Positions 6,476 to 55,437 are shown, counted from the stretch's first letter. The stretch: 64,000 nucleotides of DNA from Candidatus Gastranaerophilus phascolarcticola (GCA_001899335.1 MOYE01000004.1:198264-262263); one strand, 5' to 3'. Translations and numbers: made by a program. The notes: generated by a model not told the origin, from the sequence alone.

Positions 6476-9400
6476 CTAGTCCATACTGAAGATTTCTTTA
6501 ATGTCGTCCATCGTAAGCGATTTGGTGATGTTTCTGTCTACCGAAATTACGCTGTCAACAAGGTTCCGTTTAAACATTTTGAGTTTTTGAATTTTTTCTT
6601 CAACCGTATTTTTCGTGATAAGACGGTAAACAAAAACTTTTTTCGTTTGTCCGATACGATAAGCACGGTCTGTTGCCTGGTCTTCAACGGCAGGGTTCCA
6701 CCAAGGGTCGTAGTGGATTACATAATCCGCGCCTGTGAGGTTCAAACCTGTACCGCCGGCTTTCAAGCTGACAAGGAATATCGGAATGTGCGGATTGTTG
6801 TTGAATTTCTCAACTGCGCCCTGACGGTCTTTTGTCTTACCGGTGAGGTATGAGTACGGGATTCCGGCACGGTCAAGCCAATCCTTAACAATATCAAGCA
6901 TTTCGACAAATTGGCTGAACAACAGTACGCGGTGTTTTTCAGAGATAATTTCTTCAAGCATAACTTTGAGTTTTTCAAATTTACCTGATGACATAATGTG
7001 TTTAACATTGTCTTTGTCGTAAAGTCTCGGGTGACAGCAGATTTGACGTAAACGAAGTAATGCAGAGAAGATTGAAAGTCTACTTTTTTCCAAACCGTTT
7101 TGTTCGATAGATTTGAAAAGTTCTTCTTTTGTGCTGTCGAGAACCTGTAAGTAAAAATCCCTTTGTTCGTCTGTAAGCTCGCAGTATGCAATGTTTTCGA
7201 CTTTATCCGGCAAGTCTTTCGCAACGTCGCGTTTCATACGGCGCAGGATGAACGGATAGATTTGAAGTTTAAGACGTTTTTCAACGATTTTGTCAGCGCG
7301 TTCCATAATAGGGTTGACATAACGATAGTTGAATTCGTGCATATCGAACAGAAAGCCCGGCATAAGAAAGTCAAATACAGACCAAAGTTCTTCAAGTTTG
7401 TTCTCGATAGGTGTACCTGAAAGCGCCAATTTGTGGGTTGATTGAAGTTTTTTGACCGCTTGCGCTGTTTGTGAACCCGCATTTTTGATGTTTTGGGATT
7501 CATCAAGGATTATGTAACGGAAGTTGTGTTCTTTAAGTTTTTCAATATCGCGGCGAACTAGTGCGTAACTTGTTATTACGATGTCGTATTCAGGAATTTT
7601 TTTGAATAAGGCTTTACGCTCGGTTCCGGAAATTTTCAGACAAGTCAGTTCCGGTGCGAATTTTTGAATTTCGGATTCCCAGTTGAAAACTACGGTTGTC
7701 GGGCAGATAACAAGTGTCGGCATAGGACCGTCAACGTCTTTTGCTTTTTGAATAACCGTGAGTGCTTGAAGTGTTTTACCAAGACCCATATCATCCGCGA
7801 GAATGCCGTTAAGTCCGTATTTGTACATAAACCACAGCCAGCCAAAACCTTTTTGTTGGTATTCACGAAATTCAGCATTAATTGCTTTTGGAAGTTCTGT
7901 TGAATCCGCGGTTGAGAAGCTGGACATTTGTGACCAAAATTCTTCAAATTCTTTACTTAAAATTGTTTCAACGTTTAGGTTTTTAAGTTCATTAATTAAA
8001 CCTGCGCGGTATGTTTTTACGATGAATTTGTTTTCATCGTTGCGGAAAACGTCAAACGAGTTGAATGCGCGCATAAGTCCGTAAATATCCTGTGCGGGAT
8101 ACTCGACAAACCCTAAACTTCTGATACGGCTGTATTTTTCACCGCCCTGAATTGTGTCGTACATTTCGTCAAAGTTAACGATTTCCTCGCCTGCGCGACC
8201 GTAAAGGTAGATTTCAAATGAGTCTTTTGTCTCTTTACTGAAATCAATGTCGGCGCAAAGTTTGAACGGATCGTCAAGGATTTTGAAGAAATTCATGTCA
8301 TCTTTTTCAATGAATTTCCAGCCTTCGCCTGCTTGTTTGATGTGATAGTTATAAAAATCAATTGCGTTTTCTTTTTCGAGTGCAAGGTTGTTTGTCTGCA
8401 TCGGAACAAAACGGCAGGCAAGTAGCATATTGTATGCCTCTTGTTCGTGTTTTATGTTACGTTTAATCCAGTAAACCAAATCTTCGTTAGGTTTTTTGAT
8501 TGTAATGTACGGAACCTTTTCGCCTGTAGTTTTTGAGTACGGAACACGAACACCATCGTATTCAAATTCCAGTGATGCTTTTAGAGATTGGTCGTAATCT
8601 ATACCAAGGGTTACAACATTGAGCGGCGGACGCTCTTCAAGCATTAATTTTGAAATATTTTCCGCGATATTAACTTTCATAATCTGCTGGATTTCAGGAA
8701 GATCTTCGTGGATAAATTTTCCGCCTTCAGCGTCTTTTAGTTCGGTGAAAGATGCTTTAATAATATTTGCCGGCAGCGCTTGCATTGCAATATTTGTCGG
8801 GAAAATAATGTTTTTATAACGACCCCATTTGAGGTGTTTTGAGAAATAACGGACTTCTTCAAACGGATAAATTTCATCTTTGCCCGGGCGTTCCCATTCA
8901 AGTGACAAAAGAAGTGTGCCGCTCTGACCGGTGTTGACGGTTAGCGAAAGTTCCCATTCTTCGTCTGTAAATTTGAGTCGTTCTTTGGTTTTTTCGTCCA
9001 AAACTTCATCCGCTTTTGCGAGAAGTGAGAACATAGGACCGAATTTTGTGATTGGAATATCATACCAGCCGGCTTTTTTATCCTGACGGGCGATAGTTAA
9101 AAGCTGTTGGAAAATTGCGACTTCAACTTTTTGTGCGTTATTCAGTTCAAAATCAGGATTTTGACGTTGGGTTTCAATAAGCGCACGTAAAATACTTTCG
9201 ATTTGGCGTACGATTTTGCCGGTTTCTCTTGAGCGGACAAGGATTGAAAAGAAGTTAACTTTTCTTTTTGAGTTGAAGTGGAAAATATAACTTCCGGTCG
9301 GCTCTTCTGTTAAAGCAGTGTTTTCATCAGGGTAATCAGTTTCAATACCGTATTTTGTCTCTAACCAGTCTTCATAGGCGTGTTCGTTAATAGCCTTGAG

Positions 9401-40164: not shown

Positions 40165-41517
40165 ATGAGTGAATATATTTTAAATGTCATTAATCAAGTG
40201 AAAGAGAAAAATGCGGGTGAAGCACAATTTATTCAGGCGGTTGATGAGGTTTTAGGTTCTATTGCTCCGGTTGTGCTTAAGCACGAGGAGGAATACAAAC
40301 GTCTTGGGCTTTTGGAAAGAATTGTTGAACCGGAAAGAGTTATAAGTTTCAGGGTTCCGTGGGTGGACGATAACGGTCAGACAAGAGTAAACCGTGGTTT
40401 TAGAGTGCAGTTTAACGGCTCAATCGGTCCGTATAAAGGCGGGTTGAGATTTCATCCGACCGTAAACCAAAGTATTATGAAATTCCTTGCGTTTGAACAG
40501 ATTTTTAAGAATGCACTTACCGGATTTCCTATTGGCGGCGGTAAAGGCGGTTCGGATTTTGACCCGAAAGGAAAATCTGATAACGAGATTATGCGTTTTT
40601 GTCAAAGTTTTATGACCGAACTTCAAAAACATATTGGTCAGGATGTTGACGTTCCGGCTGGTGATATCGGTGTTGGGGCTCGTGAGATTGGTTATCTTTT
40701 CGGGCAATACAGACGTATAAAAAATGATTTTGAGGCTGGGGTTTTGACCGGTAAAGGGCTTGTATACGGCGGTTCTTTGGCAAGAAAAGAGGCGACCGGA
40801 TACGGGTTGGTTTACTTTATGCAGGAAATGCTTTGTGCAAACGGTTTGAGTATGCAGAATAAAACTGTGACGATTTCGGGTTCCGGAAACGTTGCGATTT
40901 ATGCGTGTGAAAAGGCGCAGGCTTGCGGCGCAAAAGTTGTAGCGATGAGTGATTCAAATGGCTGCGTTTACGATTTGAACGGAATAAATTTGGATATTGT
41001 TAAAGAGATTAAAGAGGTTAAACGCGGAAGAATCAGGGAATATGTGAACTATGTTCCGGAAGCGGTTTATATGGAAAATAACGCTCCGACACCTGCGGTT
41101 TATACTATTAAGGCTGACGTTGTGCTTCCTTGTGCAACTGAAAATGATATTAACCTTGAGACCGCGAAAATTCTTGTGGCAAACGGACTTATTGCGCTGG
41201 GTGAGGGAGCCAATATGCCGACTAACAAAGAGGCTATAGAATACTTTTTGGAACACGGTGTATTGTTTGCGCCAGCAAAGGCTGCTAATGCCGGCGGCGT
41301 TGCTGTTTCCGCGCTTGAAATGTCACAAAACAGTATGCGTTACTCTTGGACTTTTGAAGAAGTTGATAAAAAACTTGAAAGAATAATGGCAAACATTTTT
41401 GCGGCTGCGAAAAATGCTGCAGAGGAATACGGTTTAGGTACTAATTATCTGGCAGGAGCGAATATTGCGGCGTTTAGAAAAATCGCTGATGCTATGATTG
41501 CACAAGGTGTTATCTAA
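40165..41517 (+). CDS. gdhA: glutamate dehydrogenase
   Basis: 450 aa. Catalytic-lysine region PIGGGKGGSDFDPKGKS and dinucleotide fold GSGNVA. Confidence 0.95.
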   Translation: MSEYILNVINQVKEKNAGEAQFIQAVDEVLGSIAPVVLKHEEEYKRLGLLERIVEPERVISFRVPWVDDNGQTRVNRGFRVQFNGSIGPYKGGLRFHPTVNQSIMKFLAFEQIFKNALTGFPIGGGKGGSDFDPKGKSDNEIMRFCQSFMTELQKHIGQDVDVPAGDIGVGAREIGYLFGQYRRIKNDFEAGVLTGKGLVYGGSLARKEATGYGLVYFMQEMLCANGLSMQNKTVTISGSGNVAIYACEKAQACGAKVVAMSDSNGCVYDLNGINLDIVKEIKEVKRGRIREYVNYVPEAVYMENNAPTPAVYTIKADVVLPCATENDINLETAKILVANGLIALGEGANMPTNKEAIEYFLEHGVLFAPAKAANAGGVAVSALEMSQNSMRYSWTFEEVDKKLERIMANIFAAAKNAAEEYGLGTNYLAGANIAAFRKIADAMIAQGVI

Positions 41518-42371
41518 AGAATTATAATCAATGTGATTAAATAAATGGCAATGAACGATTGGATAACTTTGTCTCTGTAGATGAAATGTACAGGGTCATC
41601 TATTTCTTTTGAGTTGAAAATAAGATAAATAAGGCGGAACATCAGAATTGTGAACGGAATTGTTGTTACATATAGGAACTGGCTGCCTGTTTTTTCGATT
41701 GTTATCGGGTCAAGCATATAGTTGAAGTAAAAAGTAATCGTAAGGATTGCGTTTATTATCACGAAATGTTTTAACAAGCCATTGTCAAACCCTTTTATAG
41801 ATTGACGACAGGTATTATCGGTAAGCATAGCAGATTCTAGGGTTCTTTTAGAGAATGTGAAAAACATTGACAGGAAAAAAGTCAAAAGGATTACGAGCGG
41901 TGACGGTATGACGTTAATAGCCGCGCAGCCGGAAAGTATTCTTAAAATAAACCCGAGAGCTATACATAAAACGTCAACCAGCGCAAGGGTTTTGAGTTTT
42001 AGGGTGTATAAAATGTTCAGTAAAATGTAACTTATTATAATTAACAGGCATAATTTATTTAAACTTCCTGCTAAAATTAATCCGCTGCAAAGCATTATAA
42101 CTAATAAGGAGATTGCAAGTGCGGGTGTAACTTTGCCGCTTGCAATCGGTCGGTTGCATTTTATCGGGTGCAGACGGTCTTTTCGGATATCAATCAGGTC
42201 GTTAAAAATATAGACGACAGAAGAAATAAGGCAGAACGCTGCAAACATAATCGCTGCACGGACGCAGGAGTCGGGCTCTTTAACGAGCATTGAGAAGACC
42301 AGCGGTACAAAGATTATCAAATTTTTTATATAATGGTTTATTCTTATTGTTTTGAGAATTTCTTTGAACAT
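41514..42371 (-). CDS. UbiA-family prenyltransferase (decaprenyl-phosphate phosphoribosyltransferase-like)
   Basis: 285 aa and polytopic. First Asp-rich motif NDLIDIRKDRLHP. Confidence 0.8.
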   Translation of the reverse strand: MFKEILKTIRINHYIKNLIIFVPLVFSMLVKEPDSCVRAAIMFAAFCLISSVVYIFNDLIDIRKDRLHPIKCNRPIASGKVTPALAISLLVIMLCSGLILAGSLNKLCLLIIISYILLNILYTLKLKTLALVDVLCIALGFILRILSGCAAINVIPSPLVILLTFFLSMFFTFSKRTLESAMLTDNTCRQSIKGFDNGLLKHFVIINAILTITFYFNYMLDPITIEKTGSQFLYVTTIPFTILMFRLIYLIFNSKEIDDPVHFIYRDKVIQSFIAIYLITLIIIL

Positions 42372-42373
42372 AT

Positions 42374-43903
42374 TTACCCTCTGATTTTTGAAATGTTACT
42401 TAGTACGGCTGACAACAAAATAAAAATAAAGTAGAAGTTTACCCAATAGAAATATCTGTCCGAGAAAGTTTCGCTAGCGAGACTTTTGAGTGGCGTATTA
42501 GACAGCGCAGCCACGGGTTGACCTGCGTGAGCGGGGCAAGCAGGTGGCGGAGAACTGCTTTTTCTGTTTTTGAAGAATTTTTTCAAGCCAATAGCACTAA
42601 TGCCAATTGCAGTGGTGATTACCAGTGATTGAAAAATCCATTTTGGGCAGAAATTATTTACCAAAGTGAAATTGAATATTGTAATATCAATTTCTCTTAG
42701 GGTAAGAATGTTGAAAATGAGTACAAGTTGGAAAAACAGCCTGTAAAAAATTTCTGTTCCGTGATTATTGGTTACTATTCCGGCAAAAATAAATATGAGA
42801 TACAGATAGTTTTGCGAATAGATGAAACACTCTTTGCTGCCGTAAACGAACAGCAGTATGCTGTTAATAAGAATTATTATGGCTATTGTTGCAAGGAGGT
42901 CGATATTTTTGGTGGATTTAAAGTTTTTGAAAAATATTACCAACGGTAAAATATATAAACTTATACCGACAACCAGATTTTTCCACGAGAAACCGCTGTT
43001 TATTTGAAAATCAGGTATGGTTTCACTATCCCCTGGGATGAGGAATAAATTCGGTGCTAAAATCGGAGCCGAAAACATTTGTACAAAAGTTTCGTTAATC
43101 TTTTCGAAACTGAAGTTGAAATCTAGATATTTAAAGTCTTCAAAGTTGCGTGGTTCACTAAAGGCGTTTCCCAGTTTTTCTAAAAAGAAAGGCGTGTGTA
43201 TGAAACAATATTTTTGCAGCCACGCAAAAAAGACTAATAGCGCGCAAGAAGTGAGAATTATTTTGGCAAAATTTATAAGCCCTTGCTGAATATTTTGCGC
43301 ATAAATCCTCCATAACAGCCAAATAACGGTTATGATAAATGTAATTGCGTTTGATAAGATTATTCCTGTACTAAGTATGCCTAGAAACGAAATGACAAGA
43401 ATATTTTTCCACGACAAGCCGTCGGATTTTTGTGTAAGCCTTATTGCGTAATGCCACAAAAGCAATTGAGAAAATGCTGAAAAAATATAAGTTTCCGGCA
43501 GCGCTGTGAATATCAGCGTTGAAAAACTTATTCCGTATAGTGAGGCAAAAATCAATGATGTGCTTTTATTTTTGGTAAGAGATTTCAAGATTGAAAAAAC
43601 TAAACATACATTTGCACTTGCAATTATTGATTGAAAAACTATGACTGTTCTATGCGGGTCTTTAAAAAAGCTGTCAATTAAAGAAACGACAGGTTGAAGC
43701 AGTATCAGCATTAACGGATGAACCGCGATGCGGTAATGGTTTGCCACACGCTCCGTCAAATCCTTAAAAACACGCGCACAGTCACTTCCAAAGAAAATGT
43801 TATTATCATCAAGAATAAAGGTATTGTTATAACATAGCCAAAACCCTACTGTTATGTATAAAAACAAAAATGCTAGGAATATATTTAGTGTTTTATTATT
43901 CAT
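42374..43903 (-). CDS. polytopic membrane protein (GT-C-like glycosyltransferase candidate) carrying an in-frame repeat-element insertion near the C-terminus
   Basis: 509 aa with many TM helices. The SSSPPPACPAHAGQPVAALSNTPLKSLASETFSD segment is encoded by repeat copy A and is followed by one more TM helix. Confidence 0.55.
   Translation of the reverse strand: MNNKTLNIFLAFLFLYITVGFWLCYNNTFILDDNNIFFGSDCARVFKDLTERVANHYRIAVHPLMLILLQPVVSLIDSFFKDPHRTVIVFQSIIASANVCLVFSILKSLTKNKSTSLIFASLYGISFSTLIFTALPETYIFSAFSQLLLWHYAIRLTQKSDGLSWKNILVISFLGILSTGIILSNAITFIITVIWLLWRIYAQNIQQGLINFAKIILTSCALLVFFAWLQKYCFIHTPFFLEKLGNAFSEPRNFEDFKYLDFNFSFEKINETFVQMFSAPILAPNLFLIPGDSETIPDFQINSGFSWKNLVVGISLYILPLVIFFKNFKSTKNIDLLATIAIIILINSILLFVYGSKECFIYSQNYLYLIFIFAGIVTNNHGTEIFYRLFFQLVLIFNILTLREIDITIFNFTLVNNFCPKWIFQSLVITTAIGISAIGLKKFFKNRKSSSPPPACPAHAGQPVAALSNTPLKSLASETFSDRYFYWVNFYFIFILLSAVLSNISKIRG
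42458..42566 (+). repeat. GC-rich structured repeat element, copy A
   Basis: Aligns with 63336-63455. The core GAGTGGCGTAT.AGACAGCGCAGCCACGGGTTG...GCAAGCAGGTGGCGGAGAACTGCTTT is shared, and the two stems covary. Confidence 0.8.
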
Positions 43904-43916
43904 AAAATTCCCTTTA

Positions 43917-46805
43917 TTAGAAGAGGCTTAACTGTTGTGAATTATCTTTTTCTTTGAAAACTTTTTCAAATTTGCTTAAGTTTAAAAGGTCGTTTTCTAT
44001 TTTTTCCAAAAACGGCGAAATCGGTAATTCGCGCATTAATCCCTGCCACTTGCGCTTTTGCGCGCGTGAAAGGAACAAACGTTCTTCCGCACGTGTCATA
44101 CCAACGTAAAGCAATCGGCGTTCTTCCTCAATTTCGGAAGGCTCTTTTGCGCGGTATAGAGGCAAAATTCCGTCCTCAAGCCCTGTGATAAACACGCATT
44201 TGAATTCCAAACCCTTTGAGGAATGCAGGGTCATAAGCGTGATTCTGTCAGCACGTTTGTCGAGGGTGTCAGCTTCAGTTGACATTGAAACCTCGTGGAT
44301 AAAGTCGTCCTTTGCTCTGTGAGTTTTCGCAAGGACAACGAGGAAATTCCAAATGTTATCCTCGATTTTATCGGCAAATTCTTCTTTCAGTGCTGAAAGC
44401 TGTATATCTACATCCTCATCGTTCAGGCATGAAAGCAGCTTATGAACGGCTTTTTTCTCGCAAAGCGGTTCGTTTGAAAGCGCAACGAACGGCATACCTG
44501 TACGCTGCAATGCCTCAATAAGCGGTGGGAGCTGGGAGGAGGTGCGGTAAAGAATAGCAAAATCTGAGAATGAATAATCGCATTCCTGCCCTGTTGAACG
44601 CTCGGAATCTATTGAAAACAGGCTATGTCCGCCGATAAGATTTTCTATCGTACTTGCGACAAATTCCGCCTCTGCCTTGTCCGTCGGTGCCGTGTGAATT
44701 GTAATTTTATCATGCGGCTTTTCATACATCGAAACAATGTTGAACTCCTGAATCATTTGGTTTGACGCATTAACAATGTTTCCTGTTGAACGGTAATTAT
44801 TTTTAAGGTTTATGACTTTCGTCTGCGGATAATCCTGTGTGAAATTCTTGAAAAATTTGGAATCCCCGCCGCGGAACCCGTAAATTGCCTGATTAGGGTC
44901 GCCGATTGCACAAATTTTGCCATCCTCCGGCACCAGCAGGCGGATTAATTTATATTGATTTTCGTCAATATCTTGATACTCGTCCACTGAAACATATTGA
45001 AAACGCTCTCTGTACATTGCCATAATGTCCGGGTTTTCTTCTAAAAGTTTTACAGTTAGAGTGATAAGTTCATCAAACCCAAGAGCGTTTTCATCCGCAC
45101 AAAGTTCTTTTTCCTGTTCGCTCATAACCCTGAAATCCGGGTGCAAGCCAGCTGTTTCATGATTTTCTTTCAGGATTTCAAAGCATAACGAGTGGAAAGT
45201 ATGTATGTTTAAATCCTTTGCGGTTTCGCCCAAAAGTTTTGTTAAACGTTCGCGCATCTCCTGTGCTGCACGGCGCGTAAAAGTTATTGCAAGACAGTTT
45301 GCTGTTTTAAGCCCTGTATCTGAAATCAGGTGTGCAATTCTGCGGGTTAAAACCGTTGTCTTACCTGAACCGGGACCCGCTACGATTAAAAGTTGTCCGT
45401 GCGTTTCGTTCACGGCAGCCTGCTGTTGTTCGTCAAGCCCTGATTTTTTCGGTTTCTCCGGCGTAATAATCTGTGGCTCCACAACAACTTTTGGTACAAA
45501 TTTTTCAACTGTTTGCATTGGGGCTGCCGGCATGTCAATAAGTTTTAAGTTGACGTACTTTTTGTTTACAAGTTCGTCTTCCTCAAACAATTTTATCACA
45601 CCGTATTCGCCGTCATAACCCGCGTGTTTGATAACTTTTCCCTGGCGGAGGCGCGAAATTCCTTCACCCAATAGCGGCGAAATTTTTGTGATATCGTCAA
45701 CAGGAATTTCGCGCAGTATTGAAAGTTCAGAACCCAGTTTTTGCGTAATCCTTTCGTATTCTGTAACCACGGATTTGCTGCCCACGCCAACGCCTAAAAT
45801 TTCGGAGATAATTTCAGGGAGCGGGACGAGGCTGAACACTTGTCCTGCTGTCGCTGGCGGTGTAAAATCGCCTTTGCGGTCAGAAAGTTCATTGACACGG
45901 TATGAAACCCCGATTGTTAAAGGCTTCCCGCACACCGGACAAATTCCGTTGAGAGCCTTTGTCTCTTCAGGTGTCAGGCAAACATTGCATTTTCTGTGCC
46001 CGTCTTCGTGGTATTTGCCTTCTTCCGGGAAGAATTCAACAGTGCCGACGTAGCCGCTGCCGGTTTTCAAGGCGTTCATAATGCTAAAATAATCAGGATT
46101 AGTGTCAAAAACTGTTGCTTCACGTGCAAGTTTTGCAGGCGAATGCGCGTCAGAATTTGACACAAGGCGGAAACGGTCAAGGCGTGATACGTGCCAATTC
46201 ATTTCAGGATCAGAGGACAGCCCGGTTTCTACGGCAAAAATATGGTCTGATAAATCTTCATAGCATTCTTCAATTGAGTCAAAACCTGATTTTGACCCCA
46301 AAACAGAAAACCACGGGGTCCAAATATGCGCAGGGATTATATAAGCGCCATCACCGGATTCAAGTGTCGTTTCAAGCAAACTTCTTGAATCCAACCCTAA
46401 AATAGGTCTGCCATCAGAAGTTATATTACCGATTGCACCGAGTTTTTGTCGGAAATTTTCTGCGCTTTCCAAATTCGGCATAAAACAAACATGGTGAACT
46501 TTACGTGTTTTATCCCATTTTTTGTAAATAGTTGAAATCTCGACTGATAAAATAAATCTTACCGGTTCTTCGTCGGGGTTAAAAATTGTTTTTTCAATAT
46601 CAGGACGAAGTCTGTACGTGCCCTCATCTGCAGGAACAAGTTTTTCTTTTATTTCGTTAAACCATGCAGGATGCGTGAAGTCACCTGTTGAGATGACGCT
46701 TAATCCCTTTTTCTTTGCCCAAAAAGCGAGGTGTTCAAGGTCGCAGTCACGACTGGTTGCACGCGAATATTTTGAATGAATATGTAAATCTGAATAGAAA
46801 AACAT
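43917..46805 (-). CDS. fusion protein: N-terminal PHP-domain/zinc-finger module (endonuclease Q-like) plus C-terminal UvrD/PcrA-type helicase
   Basis: 962 aa. N-terminal part: SDLHIHSKYSRATS, IPAHIWTPWFS, NSDAHSP, CNVC...CPVCG and GYDGEYG. C-terminal part: AGPGSGKTT, TFTRRAAQEM, VDEYQDID, GDPNQAIYGFRGG, NYRS, HSSKGLEF and VGMTRAEERL. Confidence 0.8.
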   Translation of the reverse strand: MFFYSDLHIHSKYSRATSRDCDLEHLAFWAKKKGLSVISTGDFTHPAWFNEIKEKLVPADEGTYRLRPDIEKTIFNPDEEPVRFILSVEISTIYKKWDKTRKVHHVCFMPNLESAENFRQKLGAIGNITSDGRPILGLDSRSLLETTLESGDGAYIIPAHIWTPWFSVLGSKSGFDSIEECYEDLSDHIFAVETGLSSDPEMNWHVSRLDRFRLVSNSDAHSPAKLAREATVFDTNPDYFSIMNALKTGSGYVGTVEFFPEEGKYHEDGHRKCNVCLTPEETKALNGICPVCGKPLTIGVSYRVNELSDRKGDFTPPATAGQVFSLVPLPEIISEILGVGVGSKSVVTEYERITQKLGSELSILREIPVDDITKISPLLGEGISRLRQGKVIKHAGYDGEYGVIKLFEEDELVNKKYVNLKLIDMPAAPMQTVEKFVPKVVVEPQIITPEKPKKSGLDEQQQAAVNETHGQLLIVAGPGSGKTTVLTRRIAHLISDTGLKTANCLAITFTRRAAQEMRERLTKLLGETAKDLNIHTFHSLCFEILKENHETAGLHPDFRVMSEQEKELCADENALGFDELITLTVKLLEENPDIMAMYRERFQYVSVDEYQDIDENQYKLIRLLVPEDGKICAIGDPNQAIYGFRGGDSKFFKNFTQDYPQTKVINLKNNYRSTGNIVNASNQMIQEFNIVSMYEKPHDKITIHTAPTDKAEAEFVASTIENLIGGHSLFSIDSERSTGQECDYSFSDFAILYRTSSQLPPLIEALQRTGMPFVALSNEPLCEKKAVHKLLSCLNDEDVDIQLSALKEEFADKIEDNIWNFLVVLAKTHRAKDDFIHEVSMSTEADTLDKRADRITLMTLHSSKGLEFKCVFITGLEDGILPLYRAKEPSEIEEERRLLYVGMTRAEERLFLSRAQKRKWQGLMRELPISPFLEKIENDLLNLSKFEKVFKEKDNSQQLSLF

Positions 46806-46816
46806 TTTGCTCCCCT

Positions 46817-47296
46817 TTATACTATATATTTTTGTAAAATAAGTTTTTTTAATGCACGAGCATTCACCGCATCAGGCTCAAGTTGAAGAAGTTTTTCAAG
46901 ATATTCTAGCGCAGCGTGGTAGTTTTCAAGTTTTTTCTGAAGAGCCGCCATTGCATAAAGTGCATCAATGAATTTCGGGTCAAGTTCGAGCGCTTTTTCC
47001 AAATCTTCTGCGGTTTTTTGCAAATCAGGATTAATATCTTTTCTTGTGAGGTTTATATAAGCGCGGTTGTAATATGCATCGGTCATACGGGGGTTGAGTT
47101 GAATTGCCTTTGTATAATCAAGCATGGCATCGTCAAATTTTTCGAGAGCCTGCGAAGCAACGGCACGATAAAAATAAGGAATTTCCCAGTCGCGTTTGAG
47201 CTCAATGGATTGATTAATTTTATTAATAGCGTCATTAAACCTTCCGTTTCGTATATCAAATATTCCGTCGTCTAAAAGTGTTTTGTAGTCTGTCAT
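46817..47296 (-). CDS. tetratricopeptide-repeat protein
   Basis: 159 aa with three or four TPR units (e.g. YFYRAVASQALEKFDDAMLDYTKAIQLNP and AYYNRAYINL). Confidence 0.8.
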   Translation of the reverse strand: MTDYKTLLDDGIFDIRNGRFNDAINKINQSIELKRDWEIPYFYRAVASQALEKFDDAMLDYTKAIQLNPRMTDAYYNRAYINLTRKDINPDLQKTAEDLEKALELDPKFIDALYAMAALQKKLENYHAALEYLEKLLQLEPDAVNARALKKLILQKYIV

Positions 47297-47305
47297 AAAT
47301 TTTCC

Positions 47306-48355
47306 TTATTGGTTAATTATTTCATCTATATATTCTTGCCATTTTTTTGTTCTGTAGAAAAGTGCGCGTCTACTCATTCGTTTATAATAAGGGCGTATGT
47401 TTTCATCCGTAATTATTACTTCTTCATATTTGCTCTTAATCTTTTCTGCAAACCTGTTGACAAGTGCATATTCTTTAAATGCTACACCAAGCATTTGAAA
47501 ATCAAAAACCGGTTTTGAAAGTGATTTATACATAATATTCGTAGTGGTTTTTGTTGTCTTGTATATTAAACAGTTTTTGAAAGCATCGTTACCAAAAATA
47601 GTTTTACACAAGTCTATGGAATCCTTAAATTTTTTTCTTAATTCTGCAATATTTTCCTCAATGTATTTTTTATTTGTTATTTCATTTTTTTTTGTCAAAT
47701 AATTATCTAAAAATTCTGCCATATTTCCGTTATAATGGGCAAAATCTTCATAAAGCGCAAGAAAACGCAAAACGTATTCTTCTTTTTCCATTCTGTCTAT
47801 CTTGGAATTATTGAAAAAAGTAGAAAAATTATTATAATTCGCAAGTTCCCGTATTAATTCCGTGTACGGACCATTGTGTATACAGTTCCGTATTTCCTGT
47901 GCATTAAGATGTACGCCCCCGGTATTAAATCGTTCAAATATGTCAAAAATTATTTTTTCATCCTCTACATTTTCTATTATTACAAGGTTTAATATATAGT
48001 TTAGGACTGTATTTTGAATACTTTGCGGCAATTCTTTATAATACAAACCGTTGAACTGTTCATAATGTGACAAACCTTTTAAAGGAAACAGGTTATTCAA
48101 AAAGTTTTTGATAGAAGTTAAGCGTTGCTGTCCGTCAATAACAACGTAGTTTCCCTCTTTTTCAAATAAATATATTGACGGTATCGGGAAAGAAAGCAAA
48201 ATAGTTTCAATTAATTTGCTTGCTTTTTCATTATCCCAAACATAGTTACGTTGAAAAATAGGCTGAATAACAATATTTTTGTTAGATATATATAAATCCT
48301 CGACTGTAGCATTTCTTGTATGCGCATATATTCGATTATAATATTCGACTGTCAT
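47306..48355 (-). CDS. DUF262 (ParB/Srx-like) domain protein without DUF1524/HNH domain
   Basis: 349 aa. QPIFQRNYVWDNEKASKLIETILLSFPIP and the VVIDGQQRLTSI motif. Confidence 0.8.
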   Translation of the reverse strand: MTVEYYNRIYAHTRNATVEDLYISNKNIVIQPIFQRNYVWDNEKASKLIETILLSFPIPSIYLFEKEGNYVVIDGQQRLTSIKNFLNNLFPLKGLSHYEQFNGLYYKELPQSIQNTVLNYILNLVIIENVEDEKIIFDIFERFNTGGVHLNAQEIRNCIHNGPYTELIRELANYNNFSTFFNNSKIDRMEKEEYVLRFLALYEDFAHYNGNMAEFLDNYLTKKNEITNKKYIEENIAELRKKFKDSIDLCKTIFGNDAFKNCLIYKTTKTTTNIMYKSLSKPVFDFQMLGVAFKEYALVNRFAEKIKSKYEEVIITDENIRPYYKRMSRRALFYRTKKWQEYIDEIINQ

Positions 48356-48396: not shown

Positions 48397-49461
48397 TTAA
48401 GAAATATAATTATCATAAATAATTTTGCCTACTTTATCCTGTAATTTTCGCAGAGCGGTTTTTAAATCCTGTTTACCTGATAATTCAGGGTTCAAAAACG
48501 GGCTCTTCTTAACAAAATTTATGTATTCCAAATAGATTTTGTCTGCGTTACGGCTTACTTCTGCCAAATCTAATTCTGCAAAGCATAACATTTGAATGTC
48601 AAAAACTTTTGATGAAAACGAACTGAAACCATACTTGTCACCCTTTTTCTCCCTTTTATAATTCTTGTAAGCATTGTTTTTAAATACAATTTTACAAGCA
48701 TCTACAGCTTTTTTAAAAGTTTTTTCCAATTCACGGGTTTGTTTCCTAAATTCTTCTGCGGTTAATGAATCTAAATGCTGCTTACTATCATAATACGCAG
48801 TAATGTAATTATTGATGTCGTTTAATGAATATCGGTTATTTTCAAACATTGCTAAAAAGCGTGCTGCAAATTCTTCTTTTGCCATACGTAAACTCTTGTT
48901 TTTGGGAATTAATTCATCGTATGGTGCGTATTTTGCTAAATTATTTTTGATTAAATCGTTAAATTTTCCCTCGAATACACAGTTACGTATTTCTTGCGGT
49001 TTTAAAGTCATAATACCGGTATTATATCTTTCAAAGATTTTGTAAATAATTTTCTTGTCAATAACATTTTTAATACATTTAGAATCTAATGTATAATCTA
49101 AAATTCTGTTTTGAAGTTGTTCATTAAGTTGGTTAAAATAAAAGCCGTTTAGACTTGGAATATCTTTGAGCCCGCTAAGTTTATAACTATTTTTTAAGAA
49201 TTTTCTGATTGCTGTTAACCGTTGCTGTCCGTCTATTACGTAAAATTTGCCGTCAACATGGTGATGATATAAAGAAATTGGCGGTATCGGCAAACCTAAT
49301 ATTATACTTTCAATCAAGCAGCTTGCTTTGTTTACATCCCAAACATATTGTCTTTGAAATGAGGGCTGAAGGACATATTTGTGTTCTTTTTTCTCATCTA
49401 AAAAGTCACAAACTGAAAAGTTTTTATTTTCAACTAATACATTATATTTTTCAAAATCCAT
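48397..49461 (-). CDS. DUF262 (ParB/Srx-like) domain protein, paralogue of its neighbour
   Basis: 354 aa. QPSFQRQYVWDVNKASCLIESIILGLPIP and YVIDGQQRLTAI. Colinear similarity to the neighbour along the whole length. Confidence 0.8.
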   Translation of the reverse strand: MDFEKYNVLVENKNFSVCDFLDEKKEHKYVLQPSFQRQYVWDVNKASCLIESIILGLPIPPISLYHHHVDGKFYVIDGQQRLTAIRKFLKNSYKLSGLKDIPSLNGFYFNQLNEQLQNRILDYTLDSKCIKNVIDKKIIYKIFERYNTGIMTLKPQEIRNCVFEGKFNDLIKNNLAKYAPYDELIPKNKSLRMAKEEFAARFLAMFENNRYSLNDINNYITAYYDSKQHLDSLTAEEFRKQTRELEKTFKKAVDACKIVFKNNAYKNYKREKKGDKYGFSSFSSKVFDIQMLCFAELDLAEVSRNADKIYLEYINFVKKSPFLNPELSGKQDLKTALRKLQDKVGKIIYDNYIS

Positions 49462-49540: not shown

Positions 49541-49578
49541 AAAAAAAGACCTTTTTTATATCTAAAAAGGTCTTTTTA
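49541..49578. terminator. bidirectional intrinsic terminator
   Basis: AAAAAGACC...GGTCTTTTT is a stem flanked by A and T runs, 23 nt past the stop of CoA-transferase subunit B. Confidence 0.75.
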
Positions 49579-53990: not shown

Positions 53991-54869
53991 ATGAAAAAGG
54001 TATTTTTAACATTATTATTTTTGGTTTTGTTGAACAACGCTGTGTTCGCGGCGGAAAACAGTGTTACGACTTACAGCGAGCGTGGAAAATTTGGTTTGAA
54101 AACGCTTGAGGGTACGGTTGTGACTGACGCGGATTATAAAAAATTAATTCGTGTTGGCGAGGGTGCCTGGATTATTCAAAAGGGTTCAAATTTCGGGTTA
54201 ATGGATAATAACGGGGAATACCTTATTAAACCTAAATATAAGACAGCCGAAAGAATTATCGGCAGGTTTGTGAAATTTGGCAGCGGCGGTGTTTACGGGC
54301 TTTATGACGATAAGGGGAATGCTGTTGTTGAGCATAAATATTCTTCTATAGATTTACTGTACGGAAGAATGTTTTTGGTCGGAAAGAATTACAAATACGG
54401 GTTAATCGGCTTTGACGGCAGAGTAATTTTGGAACCTGTTGTTGATGATATTTATATGCCGAAACCTAATATTATGAAAATTCAATATGACGGAAAGTGG
54501 TACGAAATCGAACAGATTGCGGGCGGCGAATTTGAGTTGCCGTCAGATATTCGTACAATCAGAGAAAATGAAAACTTTAAAGTTACCGAATTAATTTCAA
54601 ACCCGGTTCCGTCTGCGGGTTATGGTGTAGTAAGTGCGGGCGATTATTTTATAAAAGTTTTTTCATCAATTTCTCCTGCTTACGAACAGACTATTGATGA
54701 ACTTGTACTTAACCACGGTGCGGATGTAGCCGGAATTTTAATGAAATCAACCTGGCTTGCTAAGTTTCCGTTTGTTTATGCAAAAAACTATTTTCACACT
54801 GTAAAATCGCCTAATAACGGACCTCTTGCGGATGTTAAGGCTAATTTAAAAAGCAAAATTAAAGAATAA
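53991..54869 (+). CDS. WG-repeat (KWG) protein with signal peptide
   Basis: 292 aa. Repeated G(K/N)(F/Y)GL...G..(V/I)..P.Y units: GKFGLKTLEG, SNFGLMDNNG, GVYGLYDDKG and YKYGLIGFDG. Confidence 0.8.
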   Translation: MKKVFLTLLFLVLLNNAVFAAENSVTTYSERGKFGLKTLEGTVVTDADYKKLIRVGEGAWIIQKGSNFGLMDNNGEYLIKPKYKTAERIIGRFVKFGSGGVYGLYDDKGNAVVEHKYSSIDLLYGRMFLVGKNYKYGLIGFDGRVILEPVVDDIYMPKPNIMKIQYDGKWYEIEQIAGGEFELPSDIRTIRENENFKVTELISNPVPSAGYGVVSAGDYFIKVFSSISPAYEQTIDELVLNHGADVAGILMKSTWLAKFPFVYAKNYFHTVKSPNNGPLADVKANLKSKIKE

Positions 54870-55437
54870 GGTCGTACTGGCGCTTAATTTCCTGAATATC
54901 CTGCCACATAAGCCATTTAGGGCTGCCTTTTTCGCGTGAATCGTTGCGCAGAAGATAGGAGGGGTGAAAAATTGGCATCATTTTTGACCCGTAAGGACCG
55001 TCAAACCATTTGCCGCGAACTTTTGTTATTCCGCTTTGCAGCGGAAGCATTGAACTAAGTGCAACGCCTCCGCAGAGCAGAATAATTTTTGGCTGAAGAA
55101 TTTCAAGCTGTGCGTCTAAATACTCACGGCACGCCTCTTTTTCTTCGGGAAGAGGGTTTCTGTTATCAGGCGGACGGCATTTAATCGTGTTGCAGATATA
55201 AACATCGCGTTCGCGCGACAAACCCACAGATGCAAAAATTTTATCCAAAAGCTGACCCGCTTTGCCAACAAAAGGTTTTCCTTTCTGATCTTCCCAATAC
55301 CCCGGCGCCTCGCCGATTAGGACGAGTTTGTGGTTGGGTATTCCGTCTGCAAAAACAACGTTGGTACGCGTTGCGCAAAGGTTGCACTTCTCGCAGGTCA
55401 GACATTTTTCTTTGATTTTTGCTAACTTTTTTTCCAT
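54859..55437 (-). CDS. uracil-DNA glycosylase, family 4
   Basis: 192 aa. N-terminal Cys cluster CLTCEKCNLC, GEAPGYWEDQKGKPFVGKAGQLL and HPSYLLR. Confidence 0.9.
   Translation of the reverse strand: MEKKLAKIKEKCLTCEKCNLCATRTNVVFADGIPNHKLVLIGEAPGYWEDQKGKPFVGKAGQLLDKIFASVGLSRERDVYICNTIKCRPPDNRNPLPEEKEACREYLDAQLEILQPKIILLCGGVALSSMLPLQSGITKVRGKWFDGPYGSKMMPIFHPSYLLRNDSREKGSPKWLMWQDIQEIKRQYDLIL

Follow-up and report, generated by a model that had tools for sequence, protein, structure and literature searches.

Endonuclease Q (EndoQ) cleaves just 5′ of dU, dI, dX or AP sites, an activity that has been shown only for the enzymes of P. furiosus, T. kodakarensis, M. acetivorans and B. pumilus. In the P. 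furiosus enzyme (PfuEndoQ), the PHP-fold active site comprises the metal ligands H8, H10, E76, H84, H139 and D193 together with the essential residues R114 and H195 (Miyazono 2018), and a lesion pocket formed by T142, W144, E167, G169, L170, S171 and N191 lies beside the metal site. A PIP box at the C-terminus lets archaeal EndoQ bind PCNA, which stimulates it (PMC4858679). By the account given in Miyazono 2018, EndoQ proteins were sorted into three families according to domain organization by Shiraishi 2017 (Biosci Biotechnol Biochem 81:931). Long-form bacterial homologues of 941–1244 aa with a C-terminal QLxLF motif were tabulated by Shiraishi et al. 2016 (Sci Rep 6:25532, Suppl. Fig. S1), including CDE59466 from ‘Fusobacterium sp. 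CAG:439’ (QLSLF at 956–960), CCY23933 from ‘Brachyspira sp. CAG:484’ and proteins of Desulfovibrio, Geobacter metallireducens, Zymomonas and Sorangium; a helicase was not mentioned and no activity was reported for these long-form proteins.

The stretch analysed here, referred to as the window, covers 64,000 nucleotides of the Candidatus Gastranaerophilus phascolarcticola genome (GCA_001899335.1, MOYE01000004.1:198264–262263). A preliminary description of it, made from the sequence alone, had proposed that an ORF at 43917..46805 fuses an EndoQ-like module to a helicase. The ORF list and translation bore out the exact coordinates and every motif quoted, and placed the gene on the minus strand, which had not been given; it begins with ATG and encodes 962 aa followed by a stop codon (43917–43919). 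A putative Shine–Dalgarno-like GGGGAG (46810..46815, minus strand) was read 4 nt upstream of the ATG, directly past the TAA (46817–46819) of an upstream TPR gene (159 aa), which itself lies between two DUF262 genes and the fusion gene. A promoter scan gave 52 matches against 30.5 expected and is uninformative in this AT-rich DNA. No second UvrD-like or EndoQ-like gene was found across the window.

The protein fits the long-form pattern of an N-terminal EndoQ, a length of about 940–1250 aa and a QL[DS]LF-type end, being 962 aa long and ending in QLSLF. Its architecture, size class and C-terminal motif are all shared with the homologues of Shiraishi et al. 2016, and nothing substantive differs. 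The Brachyspira sp. CAG:484 scaffold (our locus L088) groups with Gastranaerophilales loci, and the CAG entries of that study seem to come from the gut clade that includes the window protein. The window gene is thus another orthologue of an already listed family.

The EndoQ module spans aa 1–412 (45570..46805, minus strand) and consists of the PHP catalytic, Zn-binding and C-terminal helical domains, as delimited by matches to TIGR00375 and PfuEndoQ; a precomputed Pfam match assigns the helical domain to PF27218 (MJ0043_C). The TIGR00375 match extends over aa 6–404 and model positions 3–374 of 374 (E=2.2e-51), and the PfuEndoQ structures 5zb8 and 7k30 align with aa 5–420 at E of about 1e-50. 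The motifs DLHIHS (aa 6–11), AHIWTPW (159–165), NSDAHS (217–222) and GYDGEYG (396–402) all fall within this region. The catalytic equivalents H8, H10, E89, H104, H160, D219, R133 and H221 were invariant in 124/124 fused relatives. All of the lesion-pocket equivalents are likewise present (T163, W165, E193, G195, L196, S197 and N217); among the fused relatives the T, E, G, L and S are invariant, with W kept in 113/124 and N in 112/124. The alignment therefore runs end to end with EndoQ rather than with generic PHP esterases and retains every catalytic and pocket residue, upholding the proposed EndoQ-like identity of the N-terminal half.

Several features set the module apart from the archaeal enzymes (PfuEndoQ; 5ZB8, 7K30–7K33; TIGR00375), with which it otherwise shares the three domains, the Zn site and a C-terminal clamp-interaction peptide. 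The position of L168, a main-chain contributor to the PfuEndoQ pocket, is Thr in all fused proteins. The preliminary description had also read a CxxC...CxxC finger from CNVC (aa 273–276) and CPVCG (289–293). A Zn-binding segment is indeed present at aa 266–300 (45906..46010, minus strand), as seen from the PfuEndoQ alignment and family conservation, with ligands H270, C273, C289 and C292 that align with PfuEndoQ C249, C252, C268 and C271 and are kept in 121–124 of 124 relatives. The C4 assignment was revised to His-Cys3, since the first ligand is H270 (His in place of the archaeal Cys) and C276 is not conserved in the family, being Arg in 61/124 relatives. The TIGR00375 score of 175.4 bits lies under the curated cut-off of 326.6 bits, as do those of a stand-alone EndoQ of the same order (192 bits) and of other fused members (146–174 bits). 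Judged from these sequence comparisons, the module is a homologous but distinct bacterial subfamily, and its substrate range may differ from that of archaeal EndoQ. Further differences from the archaeal enzymes are a 500-aa helicase that separates the EndoQ module from the clamp peptide, and a bacterial beta-clamp motif instead of the PIP box.

The two halves are joined by a linker at aa 413–455 (45441..45569, minus strand), delimited from the family alignment, which is poorly conserved; the span from GYDGEYG to helicase motif I varies from 59 to 219 aa across the family. AlphaFold2 gave pLDDT <50 at aa 413–458, in a model that was weak overall (mean pLDDT 54.5, pTM 0.33) and, being built from an alignment of 19 homologues that are 74–94% identical, too poor for use.

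The C-terminal half contains a UvrD/PcrA-like SF1A helicase core at aa 456–945 (43971..45440, minus strand), recognized by Pfam UvrD-helicase (E=8e-67), UvrD_C (E=3e-41) and AAA_19 and by alignment to PcrA (1pjr); its best PDB matches were PcrA (E=3e-83), UvrD1 and UvrD. Motifs I (AGPGSGKT, aa 476–483), Ia (TFTRRAAQEM, 508–517), II (DEYQD, 608–612), III (GDPNQAIYGFRGG, 635–647), IV (NYRS, 670–673), V (HSSKGLEF, 861–868) and VI (VGMTRAEERL, 901–910) are intact and are kept in at least 117/124 relatives, with Walker A K482 present in 124/124, DExQD of motif II in 122/124 and R905 of motif VI in 123/124. This half is, however, not the complete UvrD/PcrA helicase of the preliminary description. 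The PcrA alignment falls into three blocks (12–118, 180–400 and 534–648), and PcrA residues 119–179 and about 400–534 have no counterpart, so that 1B is short of approximately 60 aa and 2B of about 100 aa or more; the C-terminal Tudor domain is absent. Equivalog scores were far under the cut-offs for both pcrA (400 against 911 bits) and uvrD (297 against 1144 bits). Because 2B is truncated, the regulation and even the polarity of this helicase may differ from those of UvrD. Related genomes additionally encode a canonical, Tudor-bearing PcrA, and the fused helicase is therefore a dedicated extra one.

The polypeptide ends, after a short Lys-rich tail, in the pentapeptide QLSLF (aa 958–962; 43920..43934, minus strand), which matches the beta-sliding-clamp-binding consensus QL[SD]LF. 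These five residues had been overlooked in the preliminary description. A clamp-type motif was found within the last 20 aa of 89/124 diverse full-length relatives, compared with 1.6 in shuffles, and 116/120 close homologues end in QL[ST]LF.

To place the architecture in a wider context, the bacterial EndoQ module was compared with a representative library of 1.84 billion proteins. Of its best 150 matches, 124 were helicase fusions, about 1000–1200 aa long and ending in a clamp-binding tail, although accounts of EndoQ usually present it as an archaeal enzyme found in ‘a few bacteria’. Clustering at 50% identity gives at least 124 clusters of the fusion, drawn from many phyla and with both active sites intact, and the gene was located in about 80 species-level genomes, where the neighbours change. 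The exact protein sequence is present in public collections and full-length relatives number in the hundreds. The rarity implied earlier does not hold, as the architecture is widespread and long-form homologues of the same clade were tabulated in 2016. The preliminary description had also allowed that its proposal would be weakened by a repair helicase family that was both common and already characterized; the family is common, and only this half applies because no functional characterization was found. Our literature search, beyond the reach of which lay Shiraishi 2017, Shiraishi & Iwai 2020 and Shi 2021 PNAS, found no paper describing or testing an EndoQ-helicase fusion.

Six related MAGs carry the two halves in different frames, yet still adjacent, which could be taken to mean that two neighbouring genes were merged here through a fault in sequencing, assembly or ORF calling. 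The ORF is however unbroken in the window, in roughly 70 other species-level genomes and in isolates of Sorangium, Planosporangium and Neomoorella, and the identical protein occurs on dozens of independent contigs. The frame breaks of the six MAGs are moreover all confined to one homopolymer tract that is absent from the window gene. Independent assemblies thus refute a merged-gene artefact, to which we assign a negligible probability. A conserved A9 tract was observed at the domain boundary in sister genera; slippage at this tract could, in those genera only, yield both EndoQ-only and EndoQ-helicase isoforms.

The genomic neighbourhoods of the fusion were used to assess its biological role. 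In Neomoorella glycerini the gene order is uvrB-fusion-DUF1638-uvrA-uvrC. The gene ogt adjoins or sits near the fusion in seven Gastranaerophilales loci and is separated from it by about 0.9 kb in a Nitrospinota MAG, and in another MAG mutY is found at 2.7 kb. At other loci the neighbours are ordinary metabolic genes; the neighbourhood support for repair comes from a handful of loci. In the organism studied here a family-4 UDG lies 8 kb from the fusion, and uracil repair is therefore at least redundant. Our preferred reading, which we consider somewhat more probable than its alternatives taken together, is that the fusion is a long-form bacterial EndoQ with a housekeeping role in DNA repair, acting by nicking and then unwinding.

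The predicted order of parts is an N-terminal EndoQ module, a flexible linker, a compact UvrD-like 3′–5′ helicase and a C-terminal beta-clamp-binding peptide. The motif suggests that the clamp tail would direct the enzyme to DNA on which a clamp has been loaded, as after recent replication or repair. Since the catalytic and pocket residues are conserved, the EndoQ module would then be expected to flip out its target, either a deaminated base (dU, dI or dX) or an AP site, and to cut the phosphodiester just 5′ of it, leaving a 3′-OH and a 5′-phosphate on the lesion. The tethered helicase, if it behaves as UvrD does in nucleotide excision and mismatch repair, would load at the nick and move 3′–5′ on the intact strand, turning the lesion strand into a 5′ flap, which would presumably be removed by a 5′ nuclease before the gap is filled by a polymerase and sealed by a ligase. 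UvrABC-UvrD and MutL-UvrD repair follow a shared logic of a strand-specific nick by the lesion, UvrD-type unwinding from that nick and clamp involvement, an analogy rather than membership; in contrast to both, the fusion combines nickase and helicase in one polypeptide and would make a single incision 5′ of the lesion by means of a PHP-fold enzyme with specificity for abasic sites and deaminated bases. AddA and RecB likewise combine a nuclease with a UvrD-like SF1A motor in one chain, and partial matches to NCBIfam addA and recB were obtained, but their nuclease is a C-terminal PD-(D/E)xK domain acting at double-strand ends, whereas here it is a predicted N-terminal PHP-fold lesion-specific nickase.

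The excision machine of the preliminary description, nicking and then unwinding from its nick, is plausible, and is favoured by the repair-gene neighbourhoods in other taxa and the conserved clamp tail. Against it, Pol I nick translation alone could in principle process an EndoQ nick and would not call for a helicase. The more specific proposal is of a single protein that, tethered to the clamp, incises at the lesion and then displaces the strand from the nick it has made, which would constitute a bacterial single-protein ‘alternative excision repair’ of deaminated and abasic sites; it is put forward tentatively, its probability falling a little short of even. The natural fusion to a UvrD-type motor strongly hints that, once EndoQ has nicked, unwinding comes next; the fusion also offers a directly testable model protein.

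Evolutionary comparison of the two halves bears on how closely their activities are coupled. In distant phyla the EndoQ half retains 50–55% identity compared with 28–31% for the helicase half, making EndoQ the slower-evolving part. Nine related species possess the EndoQ half only, without helicase or clamp motif, and the helicase is therefore dispensable in some lineages. These very different rates, the dispensability, the long, variable and unconserved linker, and the position of the clamp motif on the helicase end, with stand-alone EndoQ derivatives of the same order lacking it, would suit two activities that are delivered together but work independently. Helicases of the Rep/PcrA type serve in accessory roles linked to the clamp or the replisome, and the clamp might bring together an EndoQ nickase and an accessory Rep/PcrA-like motor for fork clearance or removal of RecA or RNA polymerase; alternatively, the motor may only scan DNA or eject EndoQ from its product, with the nicked strand not being unwound. 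Against such independence, both active sites have been kept together across the many clusters noted above, the halves stay adjacent even when the frame splits, a canonical PcrA is already encoded in related genomes, and in Neomoorella the gene's position among uvrB, uvrA and uvrC suggests that the helicase works in excision. We regard independent activities as rather unlikely, while still the chief rival to the nick-then-unwind repair enzyme.

The preliminary description had offered as an alternative that the fusion is the effector of a DUF262 system. In this form the protein, alone or with the upstream DUF262 pair (ParB/GmrSD-N-like), would act in phage defence by nicking and unwinding invading DNA that contains uracil or other non-canonical bases; a review (PMC8307549) passes on the idea that uracil-DNA phages may be a target of Bacillus EndoQ. 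Both DUF262 genes run in the same direction as the TPR gene and the fusion, the intergenic gaps being 9–41 nt, a terminator-like hairpin occurs only upstream of the first DUF262 gene, and the DUF262-fusion arrangement is fixed in the species (24/24 contigs read). Beyond the species this linkage breaks down. DUF262 homologues were found within 8 kb of the fusion at 2/87 related loci, both being weak matches on the opposite side of the gene. The slot is instead filled by Fic in a 94%-identical sister species and in three species of a neighbouring, approximately 87%-identical group (L007/L008, L060), and is empty in two others (L009, L012).

Matches to known defence systems were also considered, among them the DUF262-based Menshen (NsnABC), PD-T4-2 and GmrSD. 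The DUF262 proteins score 262 and 219 bits against the PADLOC NsnA (Menshen) model, but a Menshen system also needs the ABC ATPase NsnB and the effector NsnC, and a UvrD helicase is not among its components. No match to NsnB, NsnC or the DUF1524 nuclease of GmrSD was found in the window, and Menshen identity was rejected on the system definition and the missing NsnB and NsnC. The helicase half matches the PADLOC GajB models at 296 bits, lower than its PcrA match, and no GajA-like partner (an OLD-family ATPase/TOPRIM nuclease) lies beside the fusion; as PcrA scores higher, the GajB matches reflect generic UvrD similarity and a Gabija identity was set aside. PADLOC DRT-helicase matches were rejected on the same grounds of generic UvrD similarity.

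The clamp-binding tail and the uvrABC, ogt and mutY neighbours point instead to host genome maintenance. As the DUF262 insert is species-specific and DUF262 lies near so few related loci, the defence-effector reading is not supported, and we consider it very improbable. The GC content of the DUF262 islet is 29–31%, compared with 41–45% in the flanks. On this composition and the gene-order comparisons, the DUF262 pair is best described as an unrelated, laterally acquired islet whose linkage to the fusion is coincidental.

The gene for the EndoQ-helicase fusion lies on the minus strand at 43917-46805, where a single ORF runs unbroken through 962 codons to a stop. The preliminary description had located an ORF at these coordinates without giving its strand, and every motif that it quoted was found in its place in the 962-aa translation. 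A Shine-Dalgarno-like GGGGAG was seen 4 nt upstream of the ATG, right after the stop codon of the preceding TPR gene. An AlphaFold2 model of the protein had a pLDDT of 54.5 and was set aside.

The N-terminal half, described beforehand as resembling endonuclease Q (EndoQ), matched TIGR00375 (NCBIfam) over aa 6-404 and model positions 3-374 of 374 (E=2.2e-51); its score of 175 bits falls short of the 326.6-bit curated equivalog cut-off. In a PDB sequence search the sole matches were to Pyrococcus furiosus endonuclease Q (PfuEndoQ; 5zb8, 7k30-7k33; E~1e-50, aa 5-420). According to the structural literature (Miyazono et al. 2018, PMC5961232; Shi et al. 2021 per PMC8307549), PfuEndoQ has metal ligands H8, H10, E76, H84, H139 and D193, essential residues R114 and H195, and lesion-pocket residues T142, W144, E167, G169, L170, S171 and N191. 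Residue mapping placed the metal ligands at H8, H10, E89, H104, H160 and D219 of the fusion, the essential pair at R133 and H221, and the pocket at T163, W165, E193, G195, L196, S197 and N217. Across 124 full-length fused representatives drawn from many phyla, all catalytic and pocket residues were invariant except W165 (113/124) and N217 (112/124). Because the PDB matches were to EndoQ only and the EndoQ residues are conserved, the EndoQ assignment clearly stands and a generic PHP phosphoesterase is not indicated. The zinc finger proposed earlier was upheld as a Zn-binding site, with conserved ligands H270, C273, C289 and C292 aligning to Pfu C249, C252, C268 and C271, but C276 of the 'CNVC' motif is not a conserved ligand. 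In distant phyla the EndoQ half evolves more slowly than the helicase half, with 50-55% against 28-31% identity.

The Pfam domains UvrD-helicase, AAA_19 and UvrD_C span aa 457-916, and the nearest solved structures to this half were PcrA (E=3e-83), mycobacterial UvrD1 and E. coli UvrD. Helicase motifs I, Ia, II, III, IV, V and VI are all present and conserved family-wide, including K482 (124/124), DExQD (122/124) and R905 (123/124), which bears out the assignment to the UvrD family. The helicase had also been called complete, and this was not borne out: equivalog scores were far under threshold (pcrA, 400 against 911 bits), and PcrA aligned in only three blocks (PcrA 12-118, 180-400 and 534-648), so that domain 1B is some 60 aa short and domain 2B is mostly missing. 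In the same alignment the C-terminal Tudor domain was absent. The fusion helicase thus shares the SF1A motifs of PcrA but differs in its reduced 1B and 2B domains and lack of a Tudor domain. A canonical PcrA with a Tudor domain is encoded in related genomes as well. The window protein is among the shorter family members, with a 1B segment of 72 aa (median 118) and a 2B segment of 110 aa (median 173). Deletion of 2B activates the Rep monomer, and the shortened 2B domain of the fusion may be relevant to its mechanism.

The protein ends in ...NSQQLSLF, a tail overlooked in the preliminary description. The last five residues, QLSLF, fit the beta-sliding-clamp-binding consensus QL[S/D]LF, and clamp binding is predicted on this basis. 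A clamp-type motif was present within the last 20 residues of 89 of the 124 representatives, compared with 1.6 expected from composition-preserving tail shuffles; in 56 of the 89 it forms the very last five residues, and it occurred in 0.9% of internal 20-aa windows of the same proteins. Among close homologues, 116/120 terminate in QL[ST]LF. Archaeal EndoQ has a C-terminal PIP box that binds PCNA and is stimulated by it (PMC4858679). The clamp link would therefore be common to both, but in the fusion it appears to be preserved at the far end of the helicase.

Where they were informative, gene neighbourhoods in other taxa pointed to a role in repair. In Neomoorella glycerini (CP046244, L089 4848-16808) the fusion, annotated 'ATP-dependent DNA helicase Rep', lies inside a nucleotide-excision-repair cluster in the order uvrB-fusion-DUF1638-uvrA-uvrC. 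In seven Gastranaerophilales loci the O6-alkylguanine-DNA alkyltransferase gene ogt adjoins or lies near the gene for EndoQ or the EndoQ-helicase: it is immediately upstream in L059, L073 and L077 (two of the three with a stand-alone EndoQ), separated by one arginase gene in L001, L002 and L011 (ogt at 6532-7071 in L001/L002), and just downstream in L016. It is also about 0.9 kb from the fusion in a Nitrospinota MAG (L092, 8558-9109), and mutY is 2.7 kb away in another MAG. Elsewhere the neighbours are ordinary metabolic genes; a Sorangium locus adjoins genes matching Phage_GPD (VgrG-like) and DUF2169.

Two intact catalytic modules, a clamp-binding-type tail, a more slowly evolving EndoQ half and repair-gene neighbourhoods were thus established, and we somewhat favour a pathway that uses all of these parts. 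The C-terminal tail would tether the fusion to the beta clamp, and the EndoQ module would cut immediately 5' of dU, dI, dX or AP sites, as characterised enzymes do. The helicase would then load at this nick and move 3'-5' on the intact strand, peeling off the strand that bears the lesion; the resulting 5' flap would be left to a 5' nuclease, a polymerase and ligase. This step resembles the action of UvrD after 5' incision in excision repair, except that the nick would be made by the protein's own EndoQ module. A motor used instead for scanning, for releasing the product or for some unrelated task linked to the clamp is a less probable but serious alternative, while an artefact of merged genes is scarcely conceivable. 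The preliminary description was partly supported, in that its domains and idea of a repair machine hold while its defence link and implied rarity do not.

As to rarity, aa 1-412 matched 3,783 of 1.84 billion representative proteins scanned in full, 1,090 of them at E<=1e-30. Among the best 150 of these, 124 were 900-1367 aa long, and all eight Pfam-scanned members of this long class have a UvrD helicase after the EndoQ module. Named carriers include Nitrospinota, Sorangium, Planosporangium and Neomoorella glycerini. A genome scan found the fusion in about 80 species-level genomes, mostly Candidatus Gastranaerophilales (Melainabacteria), with others in Endomicrobia/Elusimicrobia and in one Bacteroidales, one Proteobacteria and one Coatesbacteria MAG. 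The architecture was already catalogued in 2016: Shiraishi et al. (2016, Suppl. Fig. S1) list 'bacterial EndoQ homologs' with their putative clamp motifs, 10 of them short (motif ending at residues 405-464) and 34 long (945-1244), the latter including 'Fusobacterium sp. CAG:439' (QLSLF 956-960), 'Acinetobacter sp. CAG:196' and 'Brachyspira sp. CAG:484'. The CAG:484 scaffold (L088) groups with Gastranaerophilales loci, so these entries seem to represent gut metagenome species belonging to that clade. According to Miyazono 2018 (PMC5961232), a 2017 paper divided EndoQ proteins 'based on the domain organization' into three families, of which two are bacterial. No paper using 'helicase' for the long homologues, and no report of their activity, was found in the accessible literature. 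The window gene is therefore a further orthologue of a widespread, catalogued family that is common but, to our knowledge, biochemically uncharacterised.

The fusion had alternatively been proposed as the effector of a DUF262-linked anti-phage system. In minus-strand order, the CoA-transferase A and B genes are followed by a terminator-like hairpin (49543-49577, 14-bp stem), two DUF262 genes (48397-49461 and 47306-48355), the TPR gene (46817-47296, 159 aa, ending 11 nt before the fusion) and the fusion. Downstream, within 41514-43903, are genes for a 509-aa protein with a hydrophobic N-terminus and no family match and, 2 nt further on, a UbiA-family prenyltransferase. From the first DUF262 gene on, successive genes are separated by 2-41 nt. 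The DUF262/ParB-like proteins (354 and 349 aa) are tandem paralogues, 38% identical, resembling Menshen NsnA (262 and 219 bits) and PD-T4-2_A (PADLOC), and their arrangement is fixed in the species (24/24 contigs read). No NsnB, NsnC or DUF1524 partner was found in the window, and Menshen as defined has no UvrD helicase component. Fic occupies the same slot in a sister species with 94% identity and in three species (L007/L008, L060) from a neighbouring group with ~87% identity, and the slot is empty in two relatives (L009, L012). DUF262 homologues occurred within 8 kb of the fusion in 2/87 related loci, both weak matches on the opposite side of the gene, and the GC content of the islet is 29-31%, against 41-45% for the fusion and CoA-transferase genes. 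For these reasons the DUF262 genes were rejected as partners of the fusion, and a phage-defence role for it is very improbable. Given the Fic genes, the slot, which is flanked by the CoA-transferase operon and the TPR gene, has the look of a defence or mobile hotspot.

The most persistent neighbour is the TPR gene, which was matched in 13 related loci; in about nine of these it lies a short way upstream at 72-89% identity. In the genus, the genes for the 509-aa and UbiA-family proteins are conserved as a pair 3' of the fusion, perhaps as a cell-envelope glycolipid module; the best match of the UbiA-family protein was decaprenyl-phosphate phosphoribosyltransferase (210 bits, below the 234-bit cut-off). 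A family-4 uracil-DNA glycosylase (54859-55437, minus strand; TIGR00758, 194 bits, above cut-off) is situated 8 kb from the fusion, so the organism probably has two routes for uracil in DNA.

Nine Gastranaerophilales species (L068, L073-L078, L081, L085, about 8001-9245) have a stand-alone EndoQ of 408-419 aa, which shares 74-80% identity with the N-terminal half of the fusion, stops just past GYDGEYGxIxLF and is followed by unrelated genes; neither a helicase nor a clamp motif was found in these nine. Stand-alone forms were dispersed among fused forms in an NJ tree built from the EndoQ domain, a pattern suggesting that the helicase was lost more than once.

Six other MAGs (L066, L067, L069-L072) carry the halves as neighbouring ORFs that are out of frame with each other. 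In every case the break is within a single homopolymer region where the two domains meet, about 1236 nt from the gene start (GTA AAA AAA AAY, an A9 tract, with A8/A10 variants or a T-run one base short). The A9 tract is conserved in most sister genera (L001, L005, L011, L013-L036 and others). Of 36 intact genes with V-K-K at the boundary, 33 use GTA-AAA-AAA against 8.1 predicted from their own codon usage, and only two runs of at least A9 occur elsewhere in all 92 genes. Thermus dnaX uses an A9 tract for slippage that produces two isoforms, and the splits could reflect similar slippage, phase variation or assembly error. In the window gene and across its genus this site is GTA AAC AAA AAG, without an A9 tract, so none of these explanations applies to the window.

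Orthologues 63-69% identical over their full length were present in termite-gut Endomicrobia/Elusimicrobia MAGs and in MAGs labelled Rickettsiales, Alphaproteobacteria and Deltaproteobacteria (L037-L058, L080, L083, L087). Those of other Gastranaerophilales genera are barely closer, at 70-75%, which suggests that the gene moved horizontally among gut lineages or that bins were mislabelled.
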